A stretch of DNA of 22,883 nt, taken from Armatimonadota bacterium. Lineage in GTDB: Bacteria; Armatimonadota; UBA10988. The position numbers and the translations under genes are program-made. The notes below the pieces were generated by a model, which saw only the letters and a list, made by a program, of their open reading frames with translations, was not told the DNA's origin and made no database searches. The stretch covers positions 1-22,883 of the forward strand of contig JACRKZ010000080.1 of assembly GCA_016235455.1 (NCBI GenBank). Direction: 5' to 3'. Shown in pieces: positions 1 through 22,883 of this stretch (the stretch's first letter is position 1; each line of letters begins with the position of its first letter).

Positions 1-848
1 GCCACGCGCAGCACGGCGTGGGTCAGCGGGTTGACGCCATCGCGTCCGTCGGGCGTGGTGCCGCCGAGCATCACCGACTGTCCGTTGTCGCCCTGCTGCA
101 CGCCGGGATAGAGGTCGCTGTCGCGGTTGAGCGTGATGAAGAACTCGGCCAGCAGCTCGTCGGCCTCGTTCTGGCTCAGCCAACCGGCGGCCAGATCGGC
201 TTCCAGGTAGGGCCACAAGTACTGGTCGAGGCGGCCCAGGCCGACATGGTAGTGGCCACTGAGCCAGACCACGGCGTGCATCAGGCGCAGGGCTTGCAGC
301 GCCTCGCGGAAGCTGCGCGCCGGCTGCGCTGGCACGCGATCGAGCACGGCGGCGACCTTGTCGCGGCCGGCGGCGCGCGCGGCCTCGGCATAGCGCGCGG
401 CCAAGGCCAGCACGGCGTCGATGGTCTCGATTGCCGCGTCGAGGAACTCGGCGGACTCGGGCTGGCGGACCCGGGTGGCCTCGGCCTGGGCGCGCCGGGC
501 CAGCAGCCCATCAGCCAACACCCCACCCCAGTCGGCGCAGATGTTGCTGATTGGCCCCAGCTCGTGGAGCGTGCGGCCTTCGGTCAGGTCGGCCCACTGC
601 TCGGGTGTGTAGATCGGCGGCACCGTAGGCAGCGTCCGCGTGAAGGCGATGCGCTCATCGGGGCCGATGACCGGGCGCTCAGCTTCGCACATCCGCCGTG
701 TCAGCCGCGCGGCACGCTGGGTCCAGCTCAGGCCCTCGGCCTCGCACTCGGTCCACACGTCCGGCGACGCCGCTTGCCGCAGCGCGCGATGCTCGCCGGC
801 GCGCACCGCGCGCTTCATTTCGGTCAGCCGTTTGCTCAGTTCCCACAT
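1..848 (-). CDS. Glycyl-radical enzyme (pyruvate formate-lyase family), N-terminal ~282 aa; runs off the left edge
   Basis: Not in the ORF track; translated by hand from ATG at 848: MWELSKRLTEMKRAV...RPVIGPDERIAF...SNICADWGGVLADGL...RVPAQPARSFREALQ...HYHVGLGRLDQYLWPYLEADL...EADELLAEFFITLNRDSDLYPGVQQGDNGQSVMLGGTTPDGRDGVNPLT. PA-x-SF-x-EALQ, GRLDQYL-x-PY and LGG-x3-DG-x-D-x-VN-x-LT are GRE/PFL-family motifs. Starts 3 nt after the stop of an activase gene. Confidence 0.92.
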   Translation of the reverse strand, partial: MWELSKRLTEMKRAVRAGEHRALRQAASPDVWTECEAEGLSWTQRAARLTRRMCEAERPVIGPDERIAFTRTLPTVPPIYTPEQWADLTEGRTLHELGPISNICADWGGVLADGLLARRAQAEATRVRQPESAEFLDAAIETIDAVLALAARYAEAARAAGRDKVAAVLDRVPAQPARSFREALQALRLMHAVVWLSGHYHVGLGRLDQYLWPYLEADLAAGWLSQNEADELLAEFFITLNRDSDLYPGVQQGDNGQSVMLGGTTPDGRDGVNPLTHAVLRV

Positions 849-851
849 GGT

Positions 852-1604
852 TCAGGTCACTCGCACCGGCACGCCCAGCGCCTCGAAGGCCGAGGTGTTC
901 GCGTTGACCGGCTGCTCTTCCGGGTAGTGTGGCGCAAACTCGAGCCCACAGGCAGGGTACTTGCCGCCCGCGGCACGATTGTAAGGTAGCAGATCGACCC
1001 GCAGCAGGCCAGGCAGGCCCGCGGCGAGTTGCGCGATGGCGGCCAGATTGGCCGGCATGTCGGTCACCGTGGGCACCAGCGGCACGCGGATGACGAACGG
1101 CACGCCCAACGCCGGCAGTCGCGCCAGGTTGGCCAGGATGGCCGCGTTGTCCACGCCGGTCCACTGCCGGTGATGCTCGGCGTCGATCAGCTTCACATCG
1201 AAGTAGACCAGCCCGCAGCGGCTGGCCAACCGCTCGAACGCCTCGGCCTCGGCCTGACCCGAGGTGTCCAGCACCACGTGCGTGTCGCCCAGCCGGTCGA
1301 TGACCTCGGACACGAACGCCGCCTGCGCCAGCGGCTCGCCGCCAGAGAAGGTCACGCCGCCGCCCGAGCCGCGCAGCAGATCGGCCTGGCGTGCGAGCAG
1401 CGCGGCCAGCTCGCCGGCCTCGTAGATGCGCCCGGCCAGCCGTTCGCCGGCGGCGCTGCGCAGGATCTGCGGCTCGGCGGTCAGGCCCTCGGGGTTGTGG
1501 CACCAGGCACAGCGCAGCGGACAGCCCTTGAGGAAGACCGTCGTGCGCAGGCCTGGCCCGTCGTGGACGGCGAACTCGGTGATGTCGAACACGATGCCGG
1601 TCAT
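852..1604 (-). CDS. Glycyl-radical enzyme activating enzyme (radical SAM), short form without the ferredoxin-like insert
   Basis: HDGPGLRTTVFLKGCPLRCAWCHNPEG (CxxxCxxC), GGGVTFSGGEP, LDTSG, FDVKLID, IRVPLVP, LLPYN; 250 aa; directly upstream of the GRE. Confidence 0.95.
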   Translation of the reverse strand: MTGIVFDITEFAVHDGPGLRTTVFLKGCPLRCAWCHNPEGLTAEPQILRSAAGERLAGRIYEAGELAALLARQADLLRGSGGGVTFSGGEPLAQAAFVSEVIDRLGDTHVVLDTSGQAEAEAFERLASRCGLVYFDVKLIDAEHHRQWTGVDNAAILANLARLPALGVPFVIRVPLVPTVTDMPANLAAIAQLAAGLPGLLRVDLLPYNRAAGGKYPACGLEFAPHYPEEQPVNANTSAFEALGVPVRVT

Positions 1605-1699
1605 GCGCGCTCCGAGGCCCGTTCTTGCGGTCCCGTCCCAGGCCGAATGGCGACCCTACTCTCGATCAGTGCCGACCGACACGCCAGGCCGGCCGCGGG

Positions 1700-4042
1700 C
1701 TACACCGTCACTTCAGCGAAACCATACGCCACCAGCCCATCGTGCGGTTGACCGCTGATGTCGTTGATCGCCAGCGAGCAGCCCTGGGCCGTGCGGCGGA
1801 AGGCGGTAACGTGGGTGCTCTCCGGCCCGACGGTCAGCAGGCTGCCCTCAGCCGGCAGCTCGCCGCCGCCGGGCGTGACGGCGTGGACCGGCACCGCCGT
1901 GCGCAGTTGGCGCGCCACGAGCGCCAGGTGCGCCGCACCGCCGCGGACCAGCGCGAACCGGTGCTCGTACCAGTTGGCGAACTGGTCGCCCTTGGAGGTG
2001 ATCAGGTGGTCGCCGGTGCCGTCGGCGTGGAGGATGCACTGCGGCCTGGTGTCGGGCCGGCCCTGGGTCGACGTGCCCAGATTGGCGGCCAGATAGCCCT
2101 CGTCGCCACACACCTGGAACGACTGGTTGCCGCCCAGGCAGATCACGCCGAACGGTTCGGCCGAATCGAGCGCGGCGAAGCGCTGTACCGCCACCCACGA
2201 ACGGTCGCCCGTGGTGTGCGTGATGGTGGCGTAGGGAATGTCGTACAGCACGCGCCCAGGCGCGCCCCGGAAGCTGAGCTTGAGGCCCTCGGGGTCGTAG
2301 CCCAGATTGCCGATGCGGCGCGGCATGTCGAAGTGCACCTCGGCGCAGAGCTCGGCGCGGCCCGCGCGCAGGCCGATGGTCAGCCGCAGCCATACCGCCC
2401 AGGCCAGCTCGCAGAACACTTCCAACTCAGGGCCGAACAGTGTGGAGCGCACGCGGGTGGTGGCGCAGGCCCAGTCGGGCTTGACGTCCTCGGTCGGCGC
2501 GGTGCCCGACGGATCGGACAGCCGGAACGGCTCGATGGCGACGGTCAGGCCGTCGATGGTCAGCCTGCCGTCGACCAGCGCCGCGCTGACGCCGTCGGCC
2601 TCAATGGCGCCGCCGGCGGTCCAGACGGGCGGTGGAGTCGGGTCGCTGGGGTTCAGTTCGAGCAGGCGGTAGCCATAGGCCGGCAGCGCCACCTCGGCGC
2701 GCGCGGTCCAGCCGTGCTCGCCGCGCAGCGTGGCCGTGGCGCAGCCGACCAAGGCCATCGGTCGCGGCGTCGACACCTCGATCGTGACGGTGCGTGCCGG
2801 CCCGGGGTTGAGCGCGAGCACATGGCTGCGGGCGGCGCTGCCGGGCTGAGCCAGCCGCTGCGCAAGGTCGTCGGCAAACCGTTCGGTGACCTCCTGGGCC
2901 AGCAGCCTGGCACTGCGCAGACACAGGTTGCGGTGCCGCGTGCGCGGGGTCCAGGGGAACCAGCCGCTGGCGTCGGAGTTCAGCCCGATGAGTGCCAGAT
3001 GCCAGGCCCGCGACATGAGCGTGGGCCCGCCGGTGCGGCTCAGGCTCAGCGCCTCGGTCTCGGGGTACTCGGTGACCTCCTCGAAGTGATGGTCCCAGAC
3101 GTTGTCGGGCAGCGCAGCATACGATTCCGCCAGCGGCACATCAAGCTCATTCATGCCGCGCGTGGCCGCGACGACATTGGCGAATCCGGCCGCGCGCACG
3201 GCTTCCAGCGCCTCGACGGCATGGCCGTGCCAGATCATGTCTTCGGGGTCGCCCACCCAGCGCGAGAAGCTCGGGCTCTCAAACACGTCCTCTAGGCACT
3301 GGCCGCAGGGGTTCGGCGCCGGGCTCGGCTCGGGCAGGCCGACCTCCGCGTCGAAGCGGTCCACGGTCGTCCATTCGATGACCTTGCCGCGAGCGGCCAA
3401 CTCCTCGATGCTGCGGACCACGCCTTCGAGGTTGCACAGCAGCTCGAAATCGCCGCCCGCCATGACGAAACTGCCATCGTCGTGAGCGTCGTAATACTGC
3501 TCCAGCGCCCCGAGCCGGCAGGTGCGCAGGTTTAGCGGGTAGGTCGACAGCTGTCGACCGTCGACACCCAGGATGCGGCGCGGGCCTTTCCAGCCCGGCG
3601 GCATGACGATCAGCCGGCTGTGTCCCATCTGTTCCATGATGAGCGGCTGCTGCGGATGGTAGGTCATCTCCTGGGGGAAGAAGGTGGTCACCCGCGTGGC
3701 GCACTCGCGTTCTGTGATCTCGCGCGTCACGCGGCCTGAGAGCAGGTCGCTCTCCTCATCGGCGCACAACGCGTGGCTGGCGGCATACTGGCAGCCGACC
3801 ATGACGATCTGCCCACGGTCGATCAGCGGCTGCATCTCGTCGAGCAGCCACGGCGCATGGTGGCGTAGGCTGAGCACGGTCAGGCCCGGCAGGTCGATGT
3901 GCGCGGTAACCTGCGGGAACTTGGCCAGCCCGCGAATGCCGGCGGCATAGATGGTGGGGAACTTGGCGCGGATCTCCTGCTTGGTGTAGCGGTCGTAGCA
4001 CATGTTGCCGTGCAGGAGCAGTGAGAGATAGACCTTCTTCAT
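1700..4042 (-). CDS. Glycoside hydrolase-like protein: GH57-type N-terminal barrel with GH38-like C-terminal beta domains
   Basis: 780 aa from ATG 4042 (AGGA upstream). N-terminal LLLHGNMCY...IDLPGLTV...LIDRGQIVMVGCQY...FFPQEM resembles the GH57/GH38-N barrel, with a candidate nucleophile Glu in FFPQE. LNSDASGW, ALNPGPART, LPAYGYRLL and YDIPYATI resemble alpha-mannosidase-type C-terminal regions. No signal peptide visible. Confidence 0.65.
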   Translation of the reverse strand: MKKVYLSLLLHGNMCYDRYTKQEIRAKFPTIYAAGIRGLAKFPQVTAHIDLPGLTVLSLRHHAPWLLDEMQPLIDRGQIVMVGCQYAASHALCADEESDLLSGRVTREITERECATRVTTFFPQEMTYHPQQPLIMEQMGHSRLIVMPPGWKGPRRILGVDGRQLSTYPLNLRTCRLGALEQYYDAHDDGSFVMAGGDFELLCNLEGVVRSIEELAARGKVIEWTTVDRFDAEVGLPEPSPAPNPCGQCLEDVFESPSFSRWVGDPEDMIWHGHAVEALEAVRAAGFANVVAATRGMNELDVPLAESYAALPDNVWDHHFEEVTEYPETEALSLSRTGGPTLMSRAWHLALIGLNSDASGWFPWTPRTRHRNLCLRSARLLAQEVTERFADDLAQRLAQPGSAARSHVLALNPGPARTVTIEVSTPRPMALVGCATATLRGEHGWTARAEVALPAYGYRLLELNPSDPTPPPVWTAGGAIEADGVSAALVDGRLTIDGLTVAIEPFRLSDPSGTAPTEDVKPDWACATTRVRSTLFGPELEVFCELAWAVWLRLTIGLRAGRAELCAEVHFDMPRRIGNLGYDPEGLKLSFRGAPGRVLYDIPYATITHTTGDRSWVAVQRFAALDSAEPFGVICLGGNQSFQVCGDEGYLAANLGTSTQGRPDTRPQCILHADGTGDHLITSKGDQFANWYEHRFALVRGGAAHLALVARQLRTAVPVHAVTPGGGELPAEGSLLTVGPESTHVTAFRRTAQGCSLAINDISGQPHDGLVAYGFAEVTV

Positions 4043-4081
4043 GGGCACGTCCTGTTAGGGCGGGGCTTCGCCAGCGTCGAT

Positions 4082-4130
4082 GGGCCTCCTTCCAGCTGGA
4101 GGCCTTTGGCCCTCGGCTGGAAGGAGGCCC
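4082..4130. repeat. Perfect 15-bp inverted repeat in a divergent intergenic region
   Basis: GGGCCTCCTTCCAGC (4082-4096) / GCTGGAAGGAGGCCC (4116-4130), with further imperfect pairing in the spacer (GAGGCC-TTT-GGCC-CTC). Confidence 0.85.
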
Positions 4131-4168
4131 CTGGCGCTTGTCCAAACCGCGCGTCAGGGGAGCCTCAC

Positions 4169-7100
4169 ATGGTTCGCACGCTGCTTTCGCTGCTCCTGGT
4201 GGACGCCCTGGTAGGAGCGACTCCGATGGTCACCTCGCTCGACGGCACCTGGCAACTGACAACCGACCCGCGCAACGAGGGTCGCGAGGCGAAGTGGTTC
4301 GACGGCTTGCCGCCGGGCGCCAAGCCCGCGGCCGTGCCGTGGATCATCCAGGACGCCTTCCCCGGCTACCACGGTGTGGCCTGGTACCAGCGCGAGTTCA
4401 CCGCCGAGCCGCTGACGCATGCCGGTGGCCGCTACCTGCTGCGCTTCTGGGCTGTGGACTACCAGGCCGAGGTCTGGCTCAACGGCCAGCGGCTCGGCGC
4501 GCACGAAGGCGGCGAGACGCCGTTCGTCCTCGACGCCACGGCTGCCGTGCGCCTGGACGCGCCGAACCGGCTCACGGTGCGCGTGCTCAACCCGACCAAC
4601 GAGCCCATCGACGGCATCGTGCTGCGCGAGACGCCGGCGCGGAACAAGGTCATCCCGTATGCCGCGGGCAACTCCTACAACCACGGCGGCATTGTCGACT
4701 CCGTCGAACTGCTGGCCGCGCCCGCCGTGCGCATCGCCGACCTGTTCGTGCGCTGCGCCGTCGCGGACGGCACCGTGCGCGCGCGGGTGGAGATCGACAA
4801 CAGCACGCCCGCGCCGGTCACGCTGCCGCTGGCCCTGGCCATCGCGCCGGCCGCGGCCGGGGTGACGCTGGCCACGACCGCGGTCCAGGTCACCGCCGCG
4901 CCGGGCACCAGCGTGCACGAGGTCAGCCTGAAACTGGCCCAGCCGCACCTGTGGGACCTGAACGATCCCTACCTCTATCGCGTCACCGCGCGGCTGGCCG
5001 ACGACGAGACGTCCGTGCGCTGCGGCTTCCGTGATGTGCGGTTCGAGGGTGGCGCCTTTCGCCTCAACGGCCGGCGAGTGTTCCTGCGCTGCTCGCACAC
5101 CGGCAACCACTGCCCCGTGGGTCAGCAGTTTCCCGTCGATCCCGACTGGCTGCGGCGCGACCTGGTCAACGTCAAGGCCATGGGCTTCAACGCTATCCGC
5201 TTCATCGCCGGGCTGCCGACACGCGCGCAGCTCGACCTGTGCGACGAACTGGGCCTGATGGTCTACGATGAGCACTACGGGTCGTGGTGCCTGGCCGAAT
5301 CGCCCAAGTTCGTCGAGCGCTTCGACCGCTCCGTGGCCGAGATGGTGCGGCGTGACCGCAACCACCCCAGCGTCGTGTTCTGGGGCCTGCTCAATGAGAC
5401 CAACGACGGCACGCTGTTCCGCCATGCCGTGGCCAGCCTGCCGCTGCTGCGCGCGCTGGACGACTCGCGGCTGGTGCTGCTCAACAGCGGCCGTTGGGAC
5501 AACCAGGTGGGCAGCCCAATGGCCGGCCTGAGCATCTGGCGGCGCGAGGACGGCCCCGACCCCAACGTCACACAGAACAGCACCAAGCGGGCCATCACCG
5601 GCCTGGGCATCACCTGGCAGCCGGGCGCATTGGCGCTGCATCCGGGCGCCAAGGGCGAGTACAGCACCGTCCGCTTCGTCGCGCCGGCCGCCGGTACGGC
5701 GAGCATCGCCGCTGCGTTCACCAGCATCGCCGAACACGCCACCACCGACGTGCATGTGCTGCACAACGGCAAGCCGTTGTTCGACGGCGGCATCAACATC
5801 GACGGTCACGGCCCGCGCGCCGAGTGGCAGGGGCAGGTGCCGGTGGGCGACGGCGACACCATCGACTTCGCGGTGGGCTATGGCAATGGCCACTACGGCG
5901 GCGACACCACGGCGCTGGCCGCGTCCATCGACCTGGCCGGAACGGCTTATAACGCCGCGACCGGCTTCGCGCTGACCAACCCCGCCGGCCCCTGGACCTA
6001 CGGCACACTGGCGCCGGGCGCGAAGCCCGACGGCGCCACCTACGCCGCCTACGCCCAGGGCATCGTGATCGGCACAGGCAACGGCATCGGCAGCCTGAGC
6101 AACCCGGGCTCGGCGGTGTGGGAAGACCTGCTCGACGACACGCACCCCTACCAACGCGTGCCGCACACGGCCTCGGTCATCCGCACGCTGCGCACGCTCG
6201 GCGGCGGCGCGCGGCCCATGTTCGTCTCGGAGTACGGTGTGGGCAGCGCCGTCGACCTGCCGCGTGTGGCGCGCTGGTATGAGCAGCTCGGCAAGACCGA
6301 GGCCGAGGACGCCCGGTTCTACCGCGACAAGCTCGACCGCTTCCTGGCCGACTACCAGCGCTGGCACCTCGACGACTGTTTCGCGCGGCCCGAGGACTTC
6401 TTCGCGGCCAGCCACAAGAGCATGGCCGCCGACCGGCTCTACGGGCTCAACGCGCTGCGCGCCAACCCCAACGTCGTGGCCCACAGCGTGACCGGCACCG
6501 TGGACCAGGGCATGAGCGGCGAGGGCCTGTTCACCACCTTCCGCGAGCTCAAGCCGGGCACCGTCGACGCCCTGTTCGAGGCCTGGGCGCCGTTGCGCCT
6601 GTGTCTGTTCGCCGAGCCGGTGCAGGCCTATCGCGGCGGCAAGGTCCGGCTGGAGGCCGTGCTGGCCAACGAGGATGCGCTGGCTCCGGGCGACTATCCC
6701 GTGCGGCTGCAGGTGGTCGGGCCGGGCCTGACACGCGTGCTCGACAAGGTCGTCACCGCAACCGTCACCCGCGACGCGCCGTTCGCCGTGCCGCTGTGGA
6801 CCGACGATGTAGCCCTGGACGGGCCGGCCGGCGAGTACCGCTTCCTGGCCACCTTCGAGCGCGGCGGCGCCGCCACCGGTGGCGAGGCGCGCTTCCAGGT
6901 GACCGATGCGGCGGCCATGCCGGCGGTGGACACCATCATCACGCTGTGGGGCGAGGACGCCGGCCTGGCGCGCTGGCTGGCCGACCACGGCATCCGCACC
7001 CGCGCCTTCGCGGCGGTGGCGCCGGCGCGGCCCGAACTGATCCTGGTCGGCGACAAGGCGCCAGCCGACGAGGTGGCGTGGCAGGACCTGACCGCCCGCG

Positions 7101-9785: not shown

Positions 9786-10217
9786 ATGAACCGAACCGAG
9801 TTTGAGGCGTTGCGCGACCTACCTGGCAAGACCATACGGGACGATATCAGGTTCGTCGAGAGGCGCGCGACCAAGCCGTTGCTCGTTGCCGAGGACCTGC
9901 GCATCCACAACGACCACGATGTGGACGCGCGTATGAATATCACCTACAACCCGGCGGTCCGCTCAGTGTCGATCAACGTGCATGTGCCGGGTCTCGGACC
10001 GATCTGCCGACTGGACAGCAATGGGCCGCGGCACCGTCCGTGCGGTCGTGACCACAAACACGCCCTGGTGACCGAGGAGTGCCCGCGCCGGAACCTCGCG
10101 GACGGGGTCACCGACCGGCCCGAGTTGGCTCGCAAGTCAACGAGGGAACTGTTTGCCTGGTACTGCACGGTCGCTAGAATCGACCATGAAGGTGTCTTTG
10201 TCGCGCCGGATGAGTGA
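9786..10217 (+). CDS. Small hypothetical protein, DUF6978-like, with a RLD-x5-H-x6-H-x-H motif
   Basis: 143 aa; GGAG RBS; MNRTEFEALRDLPGKTI...ICRLDSNGPRHRPCGRDHKH...ELFAWYCTVARIDHEGVF. Family call is from recall of the motif and its usual pairing with DUF1828. Confidence 0.6.
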   Translation: MNRTEFEALRDLPGKTIRDDIRFVERRATKPLLVAEDLRIHNDHDVDARMNITYNPAVRSVSINVHVPGLGPICRLDSNGPRHRPCGRDHKHALVTEECPRRNLADGVTDRPELARKSTRELFAWYCTVARIDHEGVFVAPDE

Positions 10218-10227
10218 GGAACAAGCC

Positions 10228-11016
10228 ATGTGGACCGTGGGCCAGATCGAAACGGCAGTGGCCGGGCACTCGCTGATTCGCGACATGGACCGGTTACCGG
10301 CTGGTGTGATGCGCATCGAGACGTCGTTCCAGTACCCAGACGGCGCATCAGTGGAGGTGTTCCTCGGCCACGAGCCCAGCCTGCTGCCCGAGGAACGTGC
10401 GCCGTACACACTGGACGATGCGGGCCAGACCATGGCCTGGCTGCTGGATGTGCAGGTGAAACCGTGGCTGTCGAGCAGGCGCAGAGCATTCGTCGACGAT
10501 GCACTGCGCGTCTACGGCATCCGTCAGGAAGGCGCCGTCCTGGGCTGCCGGTTGAGCGCGCTCAGCGAGCTGCCCGATGGCATTGTCAGGCTTGGCCAGG
10601 CGTGTCTGCGTGTGGCTGACCTGACCTACACCCGCAGAGCAGCCCTGCAGACCGAGTTCACCGAAGAGATCGGCGAGGTGTTGACCGACATCGAGGTCCC
10701 CTACGACCAGGACGTGGAACTCCTCGGGCGGTACGGCAACGTGGTCAGGGTGGACTTCGTCGCACATGGCGCCAGCACCACGTCGGCGGTCCTGGCGCTC
10801 TCATCGGCGAACCGGTCGCAGGCGCATGTGCTTGCCAACGAGGTCTTCCGCCGATGGTATGACCTGGACGTGCCGGAGCGGAGCGAGCAGCGCGTCACCG
10901 TCTGGGACGACCGGCACGATGTCTATCGCGATGACGACCTGCAGCGCCTGCATGAGATCTCCAGTCTGGTGCCGCTATCGGACCGGCAGGCGGTGGCCGA
11001 CTTGCTCGTGGCGTAG
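10228..11016 (+). CDS. DUF1828-domain protein with a C-terminal restriction-endonuclease-like (DUF1829-like) domain
   Basis: 262 aa from ATG 10228; GAGGA RBS overlaps the upstream stop. N-terminal IETSFQYPDGASVEVFL...LDDAGQT matches DUF1828. C-terminal FTEEIGEVL...VELLGRYGNVVRVDF...WYDL...VTVWDD has a REase-like pattern without an obvious (D/E)xK. Confidence 0.75.
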   Translation: MWTVGQIETAVAGHSLIRDMDRLPAGVMRIETSFQYPDGASVEVFLGHEPSLLPEERAPYTLDDAGQTMAWLLDVQVKPWLSSRRRAFVDDALRVYGIRQEGAVLGCRLSALSELPDGIVRLGQACLRVADLTYTRRAALQTEFTEEIGEVLTDIEVPYDQDVELLGRYGNVVRVDFVAHGASTTSAVLALSSANRSQAHVLANEVFRRWYDLDVPERSEQRVTVWDDRHDVYRDDDLQRLHEISSLVPLSDRQAVADLLVA

Positions 11017-11082
11017 ATCGGCCCAGCCTCCAACCCGACATCCACCCCATCGCGCACCACCATGCCTTGCGGAGCACAAAGC

Positions 11083-11904
11083 ATGGAGTTCCGGTACTTC
11101 CGCGCGATGTGGGGCATGGAGCAGCCGACGCTCGAAGCCAACCTGCGGCAGATCCGCGACGGCGGGTTCGACGGCGTGGAGATGGGCGCGCCCGCCGACG
11201 CCGACGACCGACGCGCATTGCGCGACCTGCTCGACGAGCTCGGCCTGGCGCTGATCGTGCAGCAGTGGACCCGCGGCGACACGCCCGAGCAGCACGCCGA
11301 CAGCTTCGAGGCGCAGTACCGCGCCGCGGCCGACCTGGCGCCGTTGCTGGTCAACTCGCAGTCGGGCCGCGACATCTACTCGACCGAGCAGAACCTGCTG
11401 GTCATCGACCGCGGCCGCGCGCTGGAGGACGAACTCGGCGTGACCGTCACCCATGAGGTGCATCGTGGCCGCGCCACCTTCTGCACCGCGTCGACCATGG
11501 CGCTGCTCGACGCGGCGCCCGACCTGCGGCTCACCGCCGACCTCTCACACTGGTGCTGCGTGCACGAATCGCTGCTGGCCGACCAGGACGCCGCCGTGCA
11601 ACGTGCCATCGAGCACGCCTACCACATCCACGCCCGCGTCGGCCATGCCGAGGGCCCGCAGGTGCCGGACCCGCGCGCCCCGGAGTGGCAGCCGGCGGTC
11701 GACGCCCATGTGGGCTGGTGGCAACGTATCGTCGATCACCAGCGGGCCCAGGGCCGCGAGACCATGACCATCTGCCCCGAGTTCGGCCCGCCCGGCTACA
11801 TGCCAACGCTGCCCTTCACCCGCCAACCCGTGACCAGCCTGTGGGAGGTCAACCTGCACATGAAGGACCTGCTGGCGGCGCGCCTTGCGCGGGGTCGGGC
11901 GTAG
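11083..11904 (+). CDS. Sugar phosphate isomerase/epimerase family protein (xylose isomerase-like TIM barrel)
   Basis: 273 aa from ATG 11083 (GGAG upstream); GFDGVE, HEVHRGR, TADLSHWCCVHES, HIHARVG, PQVPDPRAPEW, CPEFGP. Confidence 0.85.
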   Translation: MEFRYFRAMWGMEQPTLEANLRQIRDGGFDGVEMGAPADADDRRALRDLLDELGLALIVQQWTRGDTPEQHADSFEAQYRAAADLAPLLVNSQSGRDIYSTEQNLLVIDRGRALEDELGVTVTHEVHRGRATFCTASTMALLDAAPDLRLTADLSHWCCVHESLLADQDAAVQRAIEHAYHIHARVGHAEGPQVPDPRAPEWQPAVDAHVGWWQRIVDHQRAQGRETMTICPEFGPPGYMPTLPFTRQPVTSLWEVNLHMKDLLAARLARGRA

Positions 11905-12006: not shown

Positions 12007-14238
12007 TCACCTGACCATGGGGCACGCCAGCAGGCACGCCTCGAAGTTGCAGGGCCGGTACTTGGGGATTGCCGGCTGCTGCCGCAGCGCCGTGGCCAGC
12101 GATTCGGCGGAGATGACGTCGGGAGCGGGCAGGTTCAGGTCCCAGCCCAGGAAGTTGACGCCCTCTTCGCCATTGAGCGAGTAGCGCTTGCTCCAGTCGC
12201 AGCGTGTGCGCTCGATCGGCCGGAAGCGCTCGATGTTGCCCGCCACCTCCACCGTCGCCTCGGGTCCGAAGGCGGTTGTGGCGCAGGCGCTCACGCAGCG
12301 CGTGCAGTCCTCGCAGGCGGCGGTCAGGCCGGCGTCGGCGATGACCTCGTCAGCCGCGATCTCGGCGTCGGTGATGACCGCCACATAGCGCCCGAACGGG
12401 CCCAGCACCGGCGATACGACGAAGCCCGCGCGGCTCAGATGGCCCAGCCCGGCGGCCACGGCGGCGAAGCGGTTGGCGAAGGCGTCCGGCTGGTCGCCGC
12501 GCGGATTACCCACCACCGATCCCGTGCCGCACAGATCGAAGCTCAGCGTGGCGCGATGGCCGCGATCCTCCAGCCAGCGCATCACCCGCAGTGCCGTCAG
12601 CCGCAGCAGGTTGGTCGATTCGTACTGCGCGAAGGCGTACGGCCCGACCGACTCCGCCGGCGGCAGGGCCGTGCGCTCCACCGACGCCCTGGGCAGCCGC
12701 AGGCCGATGACCAGCACCGACTTCGCGCCCGCCAGATGGTCCTCGGGCCGTTTGACCTGCACCGTCGACGCGGTCACCCGCGGCTCATAGGGCATGAACC
12801 GGTGCGACACATCGCGCGCGTCGAGCCGCGCCATGCCGTCGAACACCTCGGACAATGCCGGATGCAGCGCGTCGAGCCGCTCTGCCGGGGCCACGCCCAT
12901 GACATCGGCGCCCAGCTCGGCGGTCAGCCGCGCCAGTTGTGCGCGGCGCTGTGCCGCGTCGAGCGGCGGCGGCGCCGGCACGGCCAGGTCCAGGCTGGTC
13001 GGGCTCAACTCGGCGGCGCAGATGACGGTATGCGTCTGCACCGCCCAGCCCGCGGGCAGGCCGGTGAACTGCGCCTGCACCGTCGCTTCGTCCAAATCGG
13101 TGGCGCAGACGGCGCTGTAGCCCCAGCGCTCGATCTCGCGGGTCACGTCGTAGGCCGCGGCGTCGAGCAGGTAGCTGCGCGCCGCCGCGCTCAAGTCCGG
13201 TCCTTCGGGCCGACGGTAGCGCAGGCCGAGCGTGACCGCCGAGCGGCCGTCGGGCAGCCATCGCGTCACATCGCCCAGTTCGGGCACGGCCACGAAGTCG
13301 CAGCCCTGCCGGTAGGCCATGGCCGCCACGGCCTGCCCCAGCCCACGATGCCCCTCGTCGCCCGCGGGCGTGTTGCGTCGACGGCGTGGCGCGTCGGCAT
13401 AGCCGCGATCGAAGTAGCGGCGGGCCTTGGGCACGCAGAAGCGCAGGCAGCAACCCATCTCGCCGCCACGCAGGCCGTGCTCGCGGACGTTGGCCAGGAT
13501 GACCGCCTCGTCCACCACCTCGGGGATGGGCAGGTCCAGGTCCAGGTCGAAGTGCTCACCCCAGGCGCAACGCCACAGGTTCTTGTTGGCCTTGGTATAG
13601 ACCTTGTCCTCGATGGGCAGCTCGTCGAGGCCGCCAAGCTCCTTGGACAGCGCGCCCGACGGACAAAGCCGCACGCACAACCCGCAGTCGTCGCACACGC
13701 TGCCCGGCTCAAGCAGCGGCGTCGGCTCCAGGATCGCGTCGGTGATGACCGTGACGAAGCGTTGCCGCGCGCCATACTCGGGCGTGATGGCCAGCCCGCT
13801 GTAGCCCAGGTCCGACAGGCCCGCCGCCACCGAGGCGTAGATGTGGCTCATGTCCGGCGCGAAGTGTGCGGTCAGCTCCTTATACCCCTTGTACCGCCAG
13901 ATGTTCGAGCTGACGATGGGCACCGCGCGGTAGCCCTCGCGCTCCAGCCACACACCGAGCCGGTACGACATCTCGTCGAGGCGGTCGTTCATACGGTACT
14001 GCACGCGGTACGGCCCGATCTCCTGCGGATGCGTCAACCCACCCAGCTCGATGCACGCGTCGGGATGATGGATGGCCATGACCACCACCGACCGCGCCGC
14101 CGGGAACAGCCCTTGCGGCGACATCATCAGCGGCGCATGAGCGAACCGCTCGATGTTGGCCACGCCCACCAGGTCCGCCGCCAGCACCTCGCGCGCATAG
14201 GCCTTCAGCCGGCCGGTCATCACCGAGTCCACTGCCAT
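12007..14238 (-). CDS. Multi-module QueG / reductive dehalogenase-like cobalamin- and 4Fe-4S-binding protein (two full modules and one degenerate module)
   Basis: 743 aa from ATG 14238 (AGGAGG 6 nt upstream). Module 1: ADLVGVA..P..LFPAARSVVV..SHIYASVAAGLSDLGYSGLAITPEYGARQRFVTVITDA..CDDCGLCVRLCP..RC..CCLRFC. Module 3: GADVMGVA..HLAGAKSVLV..AAVAAGLGHL..YVAVITDA..CEDCTRCVSAC..RC..CNFEACLLACP. The middle module (GCDFVAV..WLPDGRSAVT..IERWGYSA..TVICAAEL) lacks the Fe-S motifs. Confidence 0.82.
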   Translation of the reverse strand: MAVDSVMTGRLKAYAREVLAADLVGVANIERFAHAPLMMSPQGLFPAARSVVVMAIHHPDACIELGGLTHPQEIGPYRVQYRMNDRLDEMSYRLGVWLEREGYRAVPIVSSNIWRYKGYKELTAHFAPDMSHIYASVAAGLSDLGYSGLAITPEYGARQRFVTVITDAILEPTPLLEPGSVCDDCGLCVRLCPSGALSKELGGLDELPIEDKVYTKANKNLWRCAWGEHFDLDLDLPIPEVVDEAVILANVREHGLRGGEMGCCLRFCVPKARRYFDRGYADAPRRRRNTPAGDEGHRGLGQAVAAMAYRQGCDFVAVPELGDVTRWLPDGRSAVTLGLRYRRPEGPDLSAAARSYLLDAAAYDVTREIERWGYSAVCATDLDEATVQAQFTGLPAGWAVQTHTVICAAELSPTSLDLAVPAPPPLDAAQRRAQLARLTAELGADVMGVAPAERLDALHPALSEVFDGMARLDARDVSHRFMPYEPRVTASTVQVKRPEDHLAGAKSVLVIGLRLPRASVERTALPPAESVGPYAFAQYESTNLLRLTALRVMRWLEDRGHRATLSFDLCGTGSVVGNPRGDQPDAFANRFAAVAAGLGHLSRAGFVVSPVLGPFGRYVAVITDAEIAADEVIADAGLTAACEDCTRCVSACATTAFGPEATVEVAGNIERFRPIERTRCDWSKRYSLNGEEGVNFLGWDLNLPAPDVISAESLATALRQQPAIPKYRPCNFEACLLACPMVR

Positions 14239-14256
14239 CCGCATCCTCCTCATGGC

Positions 14257-14288
14257 TGAAGGTCATTCATCATCGTGGAATGCCTTCA
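14257..14288 (-). promoter_or_regulatory. Hairpin / inverted repeat in the 5' leader of the QueG-like gene
   Basis: On the minus strand TGAAGG-CATTC-(9 nt)-GAATG-A-CCTTCA, between the predicted promoter and the AGGAGG RBS. Confidence 0.55.
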
Positions 14289-14299
14289 CTGATACAGAA

Positions 14300-14329
14300 A
14301 TCGTAGCAGGTTGGGCTGGCGCGAGTCAA
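14300..14329 (-). promoter_or_regulatory. Candidate sigma70 promoter for the QueG-like gene
   Basis: Minus strand TTGACT (14329-14324) - 18 nt - TACGAT (14305-14300), with an extended -10 TGn. The -35 overlaps the stop codon of the lipid kinase gene. Confidence 0.65.
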
Positions 14330-15246
14330 GCGTCCAGGCCCGACGGCCGATCTGGCACCAGAACGTTCACGGCGCCCGGCAGAACGCTCACGCTGACCGG
14401 CAACTCGCCCGCGGGGTCGCCATCAATCTGCACGGGCACCGCCCCGGCCGACCGCAGCTCGACGCGCGACGCGTGCGCGAAGCAGATGCCCCGTCCAGGG
14501 CGCAGCCGGTCGGTCAGCCAGCCGGCCACGAAGCGCGGAAGCGCGCCGCGAACGTGACCGTCGACCCAGCAGACATTGAGCAGGCCATCGTCGCAACGGG
14601 CCTCGGCGCAGACCCGGCGGTCGCCGCCATACCGACCGAGGTTGGCCACGATAGCCAGCGACGCCGTGTCGGTGAGCACCGTGCCATCGGCCACCACGCG
14701 CGTCAGCGGCCGGCCGCGGCGCAGCAGCGCGGCCAGCAGCGGACGCGCATAGGCGCGCTGGGTGATGCCGCGCGGCCCGCGCGCGGCATGGACCCGCGCC
14801 ACCACCTCGGCATCGAAGCCCGCGCCGAGGCACATGACGAACCGGGACGTCGCCACGCCAGCCCGCTCCACCAGGCCGATGTCCAGCGACCGCCGCCGGC
14901 CCGCCAGGGCCACGCCCACCAACGCTTCGGGCTCGCTGGGCAGGCCCAGCTCGAGCGACACAACGTTGGCCGTGCCCATGGCCACGGGCAGGATGGGCGT
15001 GCGCCAGCCGGCGTCGACCAGTCCGTTGATGATCTCGTTGAGCGTGCCGTCACCACCCACCGAGACGATCAGGTCGGCACTGCCGCCTAGCGCGGCGGCC
15101 CAGTGCCGCGCATCGCCCGCGGCGCGGGTGACGTGCAGCTCGACCACCCGGCCGGCGGCGGTCAGCAGCCCGGCCAGCTGCTGCGCGCGGGCGAGCGCGG
15201 TGGCGCGGCCGCTGGTGGGGTTGACGATCATCAGGACGTGGCGCAT
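14326..15246 (-). CDS. Diacylglycerol/lipid kinase family protein (YegS/Rv2252/BmrU type)
   Basis: 306 aa; IVNPTSG, VSVGGDGTLNEIING, MGTAN, GAGFDA, NLGRYGG, DDGLL, QIDGD. Confidence 0.93.
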   Translation of the reverse strand: MRHVLMIVNPTSGRATALARAQQLAGLLTAAGRVVELHVTRAAGDARHWAAALGGSADLIVSVGGDGTLNEIINGLVDAGWRTPILPVAMGTANVVSLELGLPSEPEALVGVALAGRRRSLDIGLVERAGVATSRFVMCLGAGFDAEVVARVHAARGPRGITQRAYARPLLAALLRRGRPLTRVVADGTVLTDTASLAIVANLGRYGGDRRVCAEARCDDGLLNVCWVDGHVRGALPRFVAGWLTDRLRPGRGICFAHASRVELRSAGAVPVQIDGDPAGELPVSVSVLPGAVNVLVPDRPSGLDA

Positions 15247-20866: not shown

Positions 20867-21748
20867 CTAGCCGCGCGCCAGCGCCGCGAACAGCGCCCAG
20901 GCCGCATAGGCCTTGCGGTTGCCGTTCAGCGCCTGGCTGTGCGCCGCGTCGCAGTTGTACCAGTCGACGCCCTCTTTGTGCGCGGCTTGCCAGTCGCGGG
21001 CCCAGTTGCGGCCGCCCTGGTAGTCGCAGCCATCGGTGGCCGCGCGCGACAGGTATTCCTTGCCGTCGGGATCGTAGCTCTCGATGTCGGCGAAGTCATA
21101 GAGCCACTTTCCGCCCGCGCGGCAGTGCGCGCGCACGATCTCGTTGTTCTGGTTAAGCCGGCCGTTGACGCCGGTGCCGTCGAGATGACCGGTCATGTAG
21201 ACGAAGCGCACCCCAGGGTAGGCCTTCTCCAGCCGGCCCATGCCGTCCAGGTACCAGCGCACTTCCTTGTTCGGGTCGAAACCGCTCATTTGGCCGCAGA
21301 ACGACCACATGATCACGTTGACCGCTGGCTGCTTGGCGCCCCGACCGTCGGCGGTGGGCTCGCCCAGCAAGCGGCGCGTATCGATCTCGTACTGCATCGT
21401 GCCCGCGTTGGGGCTGACGTAGCCGCAGTCGCTGGGCATGGCGCCGTCCAGGAGACGCAACGCCCCACCCGCGCCGTCACGGTTGAACGTGTACAGCCCG
21501 CGGCCACCCATGAACCGGTCCAGCGGGCCCATGCCACTGGGGATCTGGCTGCCGTGCGAGGTGTGACCGTAGGCCACGACCAGCTTCTGCTTGGCGGCCA
21601 CGATGTCGGCCGCGGGGATGGCCCGCAACGCCGCCAACGTGGCCTGCTGATGGCCGATGACCGCGCCCTTGACCGGATCGGAGCCGGCCCGCGAACACGC
21701 GGTCAGCGTCAAGGCGGCCAGCAGCACGCCGCTCATTCGAAACACCAT
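20867..21748 (-). CDS. Hypothetical lipoprotein with an SGNH-hydrolase-like fold
   Basis: 293 aa from ATG 21748 (GGAGG RBS); lipobox LTAC; AYGHTSHGSQ (block I-like Ser), VIMWSFC, FVYMTGH, NNEIVR, LYDFADIES, DAAH (DxxH). Confidence 0.6.
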   Translation of the reverse strand: MVFRMSGVLLAALTLTACSRAGSDPVKGAVIGHQQATLAALRAIPAADIVAAKQKLVVAYGHTSHGSQIPSGMGPLDRFMGGRGLYTFNRDGAGGALRLLDGAMPSDCGYVSPNAGTMQYEIDTRRLLGEPTADGRGAKQPAVNVIMWSFCGQMSGFDPNKEVRWYLDGMGRLEKAYPGVRFVYMTGHLDGTGVNGRLNQNNEIVRAHCRAGGKWLYDFADIESYDPDGKEYLSRAATDGCDYQGGRNWARDWQAAHKEGVDWYNCDAAHSQALNGNRKAYAAWALFAALARG

Positions 21749-21827
21749 GTGAGCCTCCGATATCACGACCTGCGTGTCGTGAAGTCGACTCATCGTGGCG
21801 CGAGGTCATGGCGGGCGCAAGGTGAAC

Positions 21828-22196
21828 TCAGTGGGTCATCTTGCTCTGATCCATGGTCTCGCCGGGCTTCATCTTGCTCATGTCGTGCGCGCCGGTGGTC
21901 GGCTTCGTGTCCGCGTTCATCTCGGCGATGTACTTCTCGGGGTCGGCCTTGAACTTGGCGGGGCAGTCGGCGCAGCAGAAGGCGTAGACCTTGCCGTGGT
22001 ACTCCACGGTCAGCTTGGGGTTGACCTTGTTGCCCTTCTCCACCGGGCAGGTGGTGTTGACCGGCTGCTGGGCAGGGGCCGCGGCGCGGGCCGCGGGCGG
22101 GGCAGCGGCGGGTTCGGCCGGCGCCTTTGGCCCACAGCCGGCCAGGCTGACCAGCATCGTGGCGGTCACGGTTACCATCATGGTTCGACTGCGCAT
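21828..22196 (-). CDS. YHS-domain lipoprotein with a Met/His-rich tail (putative metal, probably copper, binding)
   Basis: 122 aa; GAGGAG RBS; lipobox LAGC; Ala/Pro linker; TCPV...VEYHGKVYAFCCADCPAKFKADPEKY; tail HDMSKMKPGETMDQSKMTH. Confidence 0.85.
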   Translation of the reverse strand: MRSRTMMVTVTATMLVSLAGCGPKAPAEPAAAPPAARAAAPAQQPVNTTCPVEKGNKVNPKLTVEYHGKVYAFCCADCPAKFKADPEKYIAEMNADTKPTTGAHDMSKMKPGETMDQSKMTH

Positions 22197-22377
22197 GTCG
22201 CTCTCCTCGGTATCGTGTGGGCAAGGGAGGCAGACGCGCCCTCAGTGGTTCCCTGGAGTTCCCCGGGGTGCAACACCCGAAATGCGGCCACGGAGGTGCA
22301 TCGCTGGCCGTGGTGTACGATACTGGGGCAGGCGGTCCCAGGTGTCCGGCCACGCATCCAGAGCCAGGGAGACAGTT

Positions 22378-22883
22378 GTGACGCCACCGGGCGAAGCCGC
22401 GGAACCGACCGACGCAGACACCAGACCCAGCGCCGACCCATGTCCGGTGGTGGGTGTTGGCGCCTCGGCGGGCGGGCTGGCCGCGTTCGAGGCGTTCTTC
22501 TCGGGCATGCCGGCCGGTGCCGATCCGGACATGGCCTTTGTGCTGGTCCAGCATCTGGCGCCCGACCACCACAGCCTGTTGGTCGACCTGGTGCAGCGCT
22601 ACACGCGGATGCAGGTGTGCGAGGCCGAGGACGGCATGCTCGTGCAGCCCAACTGCACCTACATCATCCCGCCGAACCACGACCTGGCGCTGCTCAATGG
22701 CGCGCTGCACCTGCTGACCCCGGCTGCGCCGCGCGGGCAGCTGCTGCCCATCGACTTCTTCTTCCGCTCTCTGGCCCAGGAGCTCGGCGAGCGCGCGATG
22801 TGCGTGGTGCTGTCGGGCACGGGCAGCGACGGCTCGCTCGGCGCACGCGCGGTCAAGGGCGAAGGCGGCCTGGTGCTGGCCCA
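22378..22883 (+). CDS. cheB: CheB methylesterase domain, probably the N-terminus of a CheB-CheR fusion; runs off the right edge
   Basis: Not in the ORF track; translated from GTG 22378 (GGGAGA upstream): ...PVVGVGASAGGLAAFEAFF...AFVLVQHLAPDH.S...YIIPPN...PIDFFFRSLA...VVLSGTGSDGSLG. The Ser-His-Asp triad is intact and there is no N-terminal receiver domain, as in CheBR fusions. Confidence 0.9.
   Translation, partial: MTPPGEAAEPTDADTRPSADPCPVVGVGASAGGLAAFEAFFSGMPAGADPDMAFVLVQHLAPDHHSLLVDLVQRYTRMQVCEAEDGMLVQPNCTYIIPPNHDLALLNGALHLLTPAAPRGQLLPIDFFFRSLAQELGERAMCVVLSGTGSDGSLGARAVKGEGGLVLA

Follow-up and report, generated by a model that had tools for sequence, protein, structure and literature searches.

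A widespread bacterial protein family with three fused copies of the RdhA/QueG fold

We analysed a stretch of 22,883 nucleotides, here called the window, from contig JACRKZ010000080.1 of an Armatimonadota bacterium (GenBank assembly GCA_016235455.1). One gene in it, on the minus strand at 12007..14253, encodes a protein related to the reductive dehalogenase (RDH) RdhA and the epoxyqueuosine reductase QueG. This protein consists of a complete module, a vestigial core and a second complete module of the RdhA/QueG fold joined in one chain, a fused pseudo-oligomer as a first-pass annotation of the window had proposed from the sequence. This architecture is new to the literature as searched, in a fold superfamily that is already known, and it defines a conserved family found in several phyla.

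Three copies of the fold lie in one chain

The coding sequence is the sole open reading frame (ORF) at its position. An in-frame Met6 codon at 14238 provides an alternative start that would give 743 amino acids (aa), the length of the database copy of the protein (P0002). The chain and its parts are as follows.

12007..14253, minus strand: whole coding sequence, 748 aa plus stop.
13708..14253, minus strand: module 1 core, aa 1-182, nitroreductase-like and of corrinoid type, with the AAGL..ITDA block and the invariant residues Y82, N89, S116, N117, W119, R120, Y121, D134, S136, H137 and R165.
13414..13707, minus strand: module 1 ferredoxin-like domain, aa 183-280, with C187/C190/C193/C197, C229, C269 and C273.
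13348..13413, minus strand: linker, aa 281-302, poorly conserved.
12964..13347, minus strand: middle vestigial core copy, aa 303-430, without the active-site loop block and without an Fe-S domain.
12328..12963, minus strand: module 3 core, aa 431-642, with Y539, D573, R585, D590, N594, R622 and the AAGL..ITDA block.
12010..12327, minus strand: module 3 ferredoxin-like domain, aa 643-748, with C647/C650/C653/C657, C685 and C735-x4-C740-x3-C744.
14300..14329, minus strand: promoter-like TTGACT-18-TACGAT, a consensus match only, in the 72-bp gap 5' of the ATG.

Module 1 (aa 1-275) and module 3 (aa 436-748) were 28% identical by BLASTP over 236 columns (E=3e-22). The middle part gave no significant BLASTP match to modules 1 and 3 (E=0.054 and 2.2), and profile comparison was needed to place it. 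Using HHalign on slices of a 49-sequence family alignment (A1), we found that the middle copy aligned end to end with core 1 (probability 97.4%, E=1.5e-11) and with core 3 (98.0%, E=2.9e-13). The two complete modules were matched in both of their parts, core 1 with core 3 (99.9%, E=1.7e-32) and the first Fe-S domain with the second (98.7%, E=2.8e-16). The same slices showed that the SSNIWRY..FAPD..H..AAGL loop block and the whole ferredoxin domain are missing from the middle copy. In the full-length AlphaFold2 model (predicted local distance difference test score, pLDDT, 91.9; predicted template modelling score 0.93), the order helix, strand, strand, long helix, helix, strand is common to all three copies.

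These comparisons bear out the first-pass proposal of three homologous RdhA/QueG-type cores with a ferredoxin domain in the first and third: the modules align to each other and to RdhA and QueG profiles, and the middle copy is shortened and free of the Cys motif, as had been noted. The sequence motifs on which that proposal was based were all found, namely AxAAGL...ITDA in the first and last thirds, CxxCxxCxxxC at 187 and 647, and the second-cluster motifs MGCCLRFC at 266-273 and CNFEACLLAC at 735-744. The chain stops four residues past its last Cys, C744.

The protein belongs to the RdhA/QueG superfamily

When the full model was searched against the PDB with Foldseek, the best matches were NpRdhA (5.5e-12), PceA (3.8e-10), a membrane RDH complex (8q4h, 6e-10) and QueG (1.8e-08), followed by CblC/MMACHC at about 1e-2. 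Over the models, values for NpRdhA, PceA and QueG ranged from 5.5e-12 to 1.8e-07. A profile of module 1 and its single-module relatives (A3) matched PceA (1.3e-23 and 1.7e-18), QueG (4.5e-15 and 1.2e-12) and NpRdhA (4.6e-11). In the superfamily, a nitroreductase-type core precedes a ferredoxin domain with two [4Fe-4S] clusters; the protein has this arrangement in two full copies and has the core alone in a third. No Pfam model reached its cut-off; there were only sub-threshold matches to Fer4 and QueG_DUF1730 (PF08331, 16.2 against a cut-off of 25.1), and the Pfam Dehalogenase model gave no match at E<=1.

No signal peptide, membrane segment, twin-arginine translocation (Tat)-like motif or hydrophobic segment was found in the protein sequence, in which the maximum 19-residue Kyte-Doolittle mean is 1.45. 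The intergenic gaps on either side of the gene, 72 and 102 bp, contain no ORF and leave no room for an rdhB-like gene. Together, these data support its assignment as a soluble, cytoplasmic member of the RdhA/QueG corrinoid plus two-[4Fe-4S] superfamily, the class III B12 enzymes. It does not qualify as a canonical QueG or as a respiratory RdhA: it fails the curated models of both and lacks a tRNA domain, the catalytic Asp-Tyr-His (DYH) motif, a Tat signal and RdhB. The absence of a Tat signal, an RdhB anchor and RYAxGxDYH reported in the first-pass annotation thus stands, the last motif occurring in none of 121 family sequences and the gaps being too small for an anchor gene.

That annotation had also described QueG and RdhA as single-module enzymes, which is only partly right. 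Catabolic RdhAs such as NpRdhA carry a duplicated, vestigial core that is unable to bind cobalamin and imitates the interface through which respiratory RdhAs dimerise (PMC10463259). The middle copy therefore has a precedent. We also built a separate model of aa 296-748 from a 41-sequence alignment (A2; pLDDT 94.2). On superposition with NpRdhA, this model aligned over about 580 columns with a root-mean-square deviation of about 20 Å and a template modelling (TM) score of 0.22-0.33. Structure prediction thus confirmed the fold match to NpRdhA, PceA and QueG but not a global superposition on NpRdhA; the order of the copies is common to both proteins, and we do not claim the same packing.

A conserved family in several phyla

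To place the protein in a wider context, 5.8 billion clustered proteins were searched and 8000 candidates scored. At least 652 clusters at 90% identity matched the protein. The best 120 of these 652 matches were 663-827 aa long and 45-100% identical, 119 of them covered at least 98% of the query, and all were named either 'hypothetical protein' or 'epoxyqueuosine reductase QueG', the latter an automatic name of the Joint Genome Institute (JGI). Besides P0002, 119 listed relatives lie on other contigs, 118 of them covering at least 98%, and an assembly artefact as the source of the fusion is ruled out. The closest named relatives, among the matches listed, are from Armatimonadota (66% identity). 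A search for fused forms of at least 1310 aa found none, which is weak evidence; the range of 828-1309 aa was seen only within the best 120 matches. The ESM Atlas returned only the family's own clusters together with unnamed or 'QueG-fragment' clusters.

In the species-representative set of GTDB, with one genome for each of 185,579 species, a relative was encoded in 300 of 332 candidate stretches. We kept 80 of these 300 confirmed loci for locus-level counts. They come from Armatimonadota, Lentisphaerota/Victivallales, Kiritimatiellia, Verrucomicrobiota, Planctomycetota/Phycisphaerae, Spirochaetes and a few Firmicutes (Clostridia/Limnochordia), many as metagenome-assembled genomes (MAGs) from gut, digester and sediment. 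The candidate that the first-pass annotation called undescribed is therefore a conserved family, and no description of it or of its three-module architecture was found in the full-text literature, with most subscription journals and closed supplements outside the scope of that search.

Searching 1.84 billion representative proteins with module 1 by phmmer gave 1986 proteins at E<=1e-3, of which 99 reached E<=1e-30, and 42 of the best 150 matches were 725-836 aa long. Single-module relatives of about 280-340 aa (for example P0274, P0292 and P0295) and two-core forms are nearest in sequence to module 1 (37-45% identity). One single-module paralogue lies directly 3' of the three-module gene in a Verrucomicrobiota MAG (L039, about 4110..5057, plus strand); it is 37% identical to module 1 over 202 residues and has only sub-threshold Fer4 matches. 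The two-core relatives P0286 (550 aa) and P0344 (500 aa) consist of a Cys-free N-terminal core, with HHalign probabilities of 96.5-99.4% to core 1 and 97.6-98.1% to the middle copy, and then one complete module, which is the NpRdhA-like order inside the clade of the three-module protein.

We also built a quick maximum-likelihood tree of 75 rows. It sampled 18 of the 120 family members, each represented by both module 1 and module 3, together with 24 of the 39 single-module relatives and an outgroup of 15 more distant proteins. Modules 1 and 3 each formed one clade with 100% support and parallel internal topologies, and on this basis the tree argues that the three-module fusion is old and happened once. 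The per-module phylogeny suggested in the first-pass annotation thus found each module to be monophyletic. Module 1 nests among the single-module proteins, with P0274 as sister (support 99), and module 3 stands on a long stem (1.04). Because deep supports are 80-92% in the Shimodaira-Hasegawa-like approximate likelihood-ratio test, the tree does not choose between module 3 as an older paralogue and as a fast-evolving duplicate.

The two complete modules are not equivalent

Conservation was measured in the 120-sequence family alignment, counting columns conserved at 95% or more. Module 1 is the more constrained of the two, with 68 of 173 such columns in its core and 41 of 98 in its Fe-S domain, compared to 26 of 212 and 21 of 106 in module 3; the middle copy has 7 of 118. 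Module 3 evolves about twice as fast as module 1. The number of Cys residues differs too, with seven invariant in module 1 (187, 190, 193, 197, 229, 269, 273) and eight conserved in module 3 (647, 650, 653, 657, 685, 735, 740, 744), so that the non-equivalence predicted for the two sites in the first-pass annotation was upheld.

QueG has the pattern C188-x2-C191-x2-C194-x3-C198...C214...C240-x2-C243-x3-C247, in which C198, C214, C240 and C243 are ligands of the cluster adjoining cobalamin (PMC5175355). The position of the eighth Cys in module 1 is taken by M266, which is Met in 118 of 120 sequences and lies beside an invariant E265; position 268 is Ser in 78 of 120 and Cys in 37. In 28 of 39 single-module relatives the M266-equivalent position is Cys, giving the canonical CGxCxxxC. 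The Cys in single-module relatives and the Met in the three-module family argue that module 1 specifically lost this ligand. In module 1, 119 of 120 sequences have the canonical first Cys motif. In module 3 this motif is dimorphic (Cx2Cx3Cx3C in 60 of 120, Cx2Cx2Cx3C in 56 of 120), and the last motif of module 3 is Cx4Cx3C in 101 of 120. The loss of this ligand implies that the proximal cluster of module 1 would be a [3Fe-4S] cluster or one with a non-Cys ligand; some RdhAs are reported to contain a [3Fe-4S] cluster.

A Tyr above the corrin (PceA Y246, NpRdhA Y426, QueG Y101/Y105) is common to QueG and RdhA. In RdhA its partner is Arg305, for which QueG has no equivalent (PMC4646009). The dyad in NpRdhA is Y426/K488 (PMC7565698). 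R165 and R622 align to PceA R305 and NpRdhA K488, and each is present in 120 of 120 sequences. At the catalytic Tyr position, the profile alignment placed the invariant N89 at PceA Tyr246 and R91 at QueG Tyr105, and it placed F131 at PceA Asn272 and at QueG Asp134 of B. subtilis, whose counterpart in S. thermophilus is Asp130. The shared Tyr and the QueG Asp are thus not clearly retained. Y82 and Y539, seven residues upstream of the aligned Tyr site, are conserved in both modules, and Y82 occurs in 28 of 39 single-module relatives. D134 and D590 are also conserved; the invariant D134 sits three residues past F131, so that a loop Asp is possible.

The AF2 model has low confidence only in its first three residues and at 121-134 (pLDDT below 50 at 121-125 and 130-134). 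Residues 121-134 form an invariant loop immediately before the AAGL helix and, in the model, are reminiscent of the mobile catalytic loop of QueG. From homology of the AAGL..R..TD block, the core may bind base-off cobalamin.

Comparison with characterized systems

The closest parallels are with the catabolic RdhAs (NpRdhA, PDB 4ras and 6zxu; BhbA; JtRdhA). Like them, the protein is cytoplasmic, has no Tat signal or RdhB, and joins in one chain a complete corrinoid-type core, a two-cluster domain and a vestigial core (PMC10463259). NpRdhA in particular is the best Foldseek match, and the basic residue of its Tyr-Lys/Arg dyad is kept. The differences are also clear: there are three cores compared to two and two complete units compared to one, the vestigial copy lies in between, the score is below the RDH cut-off, the Tyr position is Asn, and the genes occur in glycan-degrader hosts in an IclR/AraC context.

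With the respiratory RdhA PceA (PDB 4uqu, 8q4h), it shares the core, CxxCxxCxxxC, a second Cys motif and the Arg305 equivalent, and PceA gives the top profile scores. Unlike PceA, it has no Tat signal, no membrane-anchor partner and no homodimer of single modules; the second motif of module 1 is short by one Cys, and module 3 has Cx4Cx3C. QueG (PDB 5d08, 5d6s) is likewise a cytoplasmic, small core-plus-ferredoxin unit of similar size, and the pre-AAGL loop of low pLDDT is located where QueG has a mobile Asp134 loop. QueG also has a C-terminal HEAT-like tRNA-binding domain (both features from PMC5175355). The protein differs from QueG in lacking this domain and the DYH motif, in carrying an Arg that is missing from QueG, and in scoring below the curated cut-off. 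The single-module and two-core relatives have Y82, S136, H137 and R165 in common with it. Unlike the uncharacterised single- and two-core relatives, it has three cores rather than one or two, and Met266 where 28 of 39 have Cys.

Regulators are the recurrent adjacent genes

We clustered the flanking ORFs of the 80 loci, 52 of which have at least 1 kb on both sides. An IclR-family regulator was present in 39 of the 80; it always adjoined or overlapped the ORF called as the target, and in 36 of the 39 it was on the target's strand. Among the 52 loci with both flanks, 29 had IclR, eight had an adjacent AraC and 36 had either. IclR and AraC were the only recurrent adjacent genes. Other neighbours across the 80 loci included GH89-like (8) and GH20 (6) glycoside hydrolases (GH), an FAD oxidoreductase (5), sulfatase (4) and a major facilitator superfamily transporter (4), and eight fully annotated loci also contained GH123, GH92, GH10, an SSF symporter (L044) and another TIM barrel (L079). 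The IclR or AraC genes next to the target and the glycan-utilisation genes in its surroundings suggest a role that is catabolic and inducible, acting on an imported small metabolite rather than in tRNA modification.

In the window, the immediate neighbours are a convergent xylose-isomerase-like TIM barrel (11062..11904, plus strand) and a YegS/diacylglycerol-kinase-like gene (14326..15246). Beyond these two lie GH2, DUF2961, M28 peptidase, DUF1559, GH39-like and BD-FAE esterase genes. The DNA of the window is about 70% G+C. The upstream gap contains one promoter-like site, compared to a mean of 0.1 in shuffles, and no terminator-like site was found.

Three loci have additional features. In a Phycisphaerales genome (L064, 12362..15243, plus strand), a complete tripartite ATP-independent periplasmic (TRAP) transporter (DctP, DctQ, DctM) lies 49 bp 3' of the target on the same strand, which hints at a carboxylate-type substrate in that genome. 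In an Oscillospiraceae MAG (L053, 2..1222, plus strand), the target and IclR have as neighbours a serine recombinase and a V-type ATPase operon; this would fit horizontal transfer of the target-IclR two-gene unit into Firmicutes. Finally, xylose-isomerase-like TIM barrels adjoin the target in two unrelated genomes, at 13345..14301 (plus strand) in L079 and at 11062..11904 (plus strand) in the window; the two have no mutual match at E<=1e-5.

Predicted function and alternatives

Homology, architecture, conservation and gene context were read directly from the data; from these we infer cofactor content, chemistry and substrate class. On balance, we consider it somewhat probable that the protein is a substrate-inducible, cytoplasmic class III B12 reductase of new architecture with a small-molecule substrate. 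By homology, a low-potential donor would reduce the outer Fe-S cluster, and the inner cluster would then reduce a base-off corrinoid to Co(I). With a small substrate held above the corrin, Co(I) could then break a C-O or C-halogen bond in it by two-electron reduction. Module 1 is predicted to be the main active site, because it is the most constrained part and has an invariant loop of polar, aromatic and basic residues that is modelled as disordered. Module 3, which keeps all eight Cys and the conserved Arg, may be a second, looser active site or an electron-relay module. The middle copy would be structural, by analogy with the vestigial core of catabolic RdhAs.

Several observations weigh against a B12 reductase of this kind. 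Matches to both curated NCBIfam models are partial: the RDH model TIGR02486 scored 81.9 bits against a cut-off of 160.35 (E=7.1e-23, in two stretches) and the QueG model TIGR00276 scored 42.9 bits against a cut-off of 200 (E=3.1e-11). By QueG's scheme, module 1 appears to be without one ligand of its predicted corrin-proximal cluster, and the catalytic Tyr of all solved members seems not to be clearly retained. The AAGL signature by itself would be no proof of B12 binding in any module, because the non-binding vestigial domain of NpRdhA still matches it weakly (a second match to the AAGL block, at NpRdhA residues 182-226). Gene context contributes as well. Of 13 window neighbours, only DUF1559 (10 loci) and a partial M28 (2 loci) recur near homologues, and the 25 window ORFs scanned include neither IclR nor AraC. 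Near the 80 loci, genes for electron donors, cobamide uptake or cobamide synthesis do not recur, Rfam and tRNA scans of the window were empty, with no riboswitch, and the IclR proteins match generic models only, far below cut-off, and give no ligand clue.

As described in PMC4646009 and PMC5175355, only two chemistries are established for the B12/Fe-S enzyme class, dehalogenation and epoxyqueuosine reduction. Within the reductase reading, we tentatively propose a more specific possibility, that the family is a separate branch of class III B12 reductases with a third function. It would combine an architecture of two complete corrinoid/Fe-S modules and a vestigial bridge, with one three-Cys proximal cluster, with a function in reductive C-O (or similar) cleavage of a glycan-derived metabolite under IclR/AraC control in anaerobic bacteria of Armatimonadota and of the Planctomycetes-Verrucomicrobia-Chlamydiae (PVC) group.

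The main rival, which we consider unlikely, is a catabolic, non-respiratory RdhA that, like NpRdhA and BhbA, dehalogenates natural organohalides (for example halogenated phenolic acids). In its favour, the top fold and profile matches are NpRdhA and PceA, the equivalent of PceA R305/NpRdhA K488 is an invariant Arg in both complete modules, and the lack of a Tat signal and the vestigial core copy are as in catabolic RdhAs (PMC10463259). The adjacent IclR proteins also partly match the PcaR/PcaU/PobR model of aromatic-acid regulators; however, matches to BhcR and KdgR are equally weak, all being far below cut-off. The RDH score is about half of its cut-off, PceA Tyr246 corresponds to an invariant Asn, and the model of the middle copy plus module 3 fails the global NpRdhA superposition reported above. 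Instead of recurrent aromatic-catabolism genes, the loci contain glycoside hydrolases, sulfatases and sugar or organic-acid transporters, and the hosts are gut and digester glycan degraders.

A non-corrinoid protein is improbable. In this case the nitroreductase-like cores would hold another cofactor or none, and the chain would be a multi-cluster Fe-S carrier or a flavin-type reductase. The core fold is common to flavin nitroreductases, which gave weak Foldseek matches of about 1e-2, and Pfam shows only Fer4 models; the unclear retention of the catalytic Tyr and the signature kept by the NpRdhA vestigial domain without B12 binding point the same way. However, the matches to corrinoid enzymes are the strongest, with a lead of 8 to 20 orders of magnitude, both complete cores are joined to the same two-cluster domain in the RdhA/QueG order, and the loop residues at the expected corrin site are invariant across phyla.

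A role in corrinoid processing itself, by CblC-like dealkylation or decyanation or by cobamide remodelling, is very improbable. CblC/MMACHC/CblD are weak structural matches (E about 1e-2), far weaker than RdhA and QueG. The L079 TIM barrel has a match to the cobamide-remodelling protein CbiR, and the window TIM barrel, which belongs to the xylose-isomerase-like superfamily, adjoins the target convergently. The CbiR match is confined to one locus and is below threshold (41.6 bits against a cut-off of 105), and the L079 protein also matches sugar epimerase and IolE models; the window TIM barrel has no NCBIfam match at E<=1e-5 and is not recurrent near homologues, and neither are cobamide transport and synthesis genes. 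Least credible of all is a QueG isoenzyme, as the JGI automatic names on several family members and the partial TIGR00276 and PF08331 matches would have it, since the TIGR00276 score is far below its cut-off, the Fe-S domain of module 1 leads into a 22-residue linker and the vestigial core instead of a C-terminal HEAT-like tRNA-binding domain, RYAxGxDYH is absent from all 121 sequences, the RdhA-type Arg is kept where QueG has no equivalent (PMC4646009), and adjacent substrate-type regulators would be unexpected beside a housekeeping tRNA enzyme.

The family is thus widespread (300 loci among 185,579 species) and mostly unnamed or mis-named 'QueG', and the labels 'QueG' and 'RdhA-like' on its members are no basis for assigning queuosine synthesis or organohalide respiration. 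Because it has two full redox modules per chain, adjacent regulators and gut or sediment glycan-degrader hosts, the B12 reductase proposed here is a candidate, amenable to testing, for a new B12-dependent reaction in the anaerobic turnover of carbon by sugar-polymer degraders.

Other features of the window

At one edge of the window is a fragment of a pyruvate formate-lyase-like glycyl-radical enzyme (3..848, minus strand), cut by the window edge, with a radical S-adenosylmethionine activase at 852..1604 (minus strand). The best NCBIfam match of the fragment is a partial one to the (2S)-3-sulfopropanediol dehydratase HpsG (78.8 bits against a cut-off of 1000). By the activase lies a 782-aa ORF (1700..4048, minus strand) with no Pfam (E<=0.1) or NCBIfam (E<=1e-5) match; it overlaps a 556-aa ORF on the opposite strand (1625..3295), and either of the two may be the real gene. 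Near the other end, ORFs of 308 aa (20867..21793) and 363 aa (21790..22881), both on the minus strand and the second running off the window, had no Pfam match at E<=0.1. The segment 9001..11000 has a G+C content of about 0.65, compared to about 0.70 elsewhere, and carries a gene for a DUF1828 protein (10153..11016) and a 143-aa ORF of no family; this segment may be a foreign insert.

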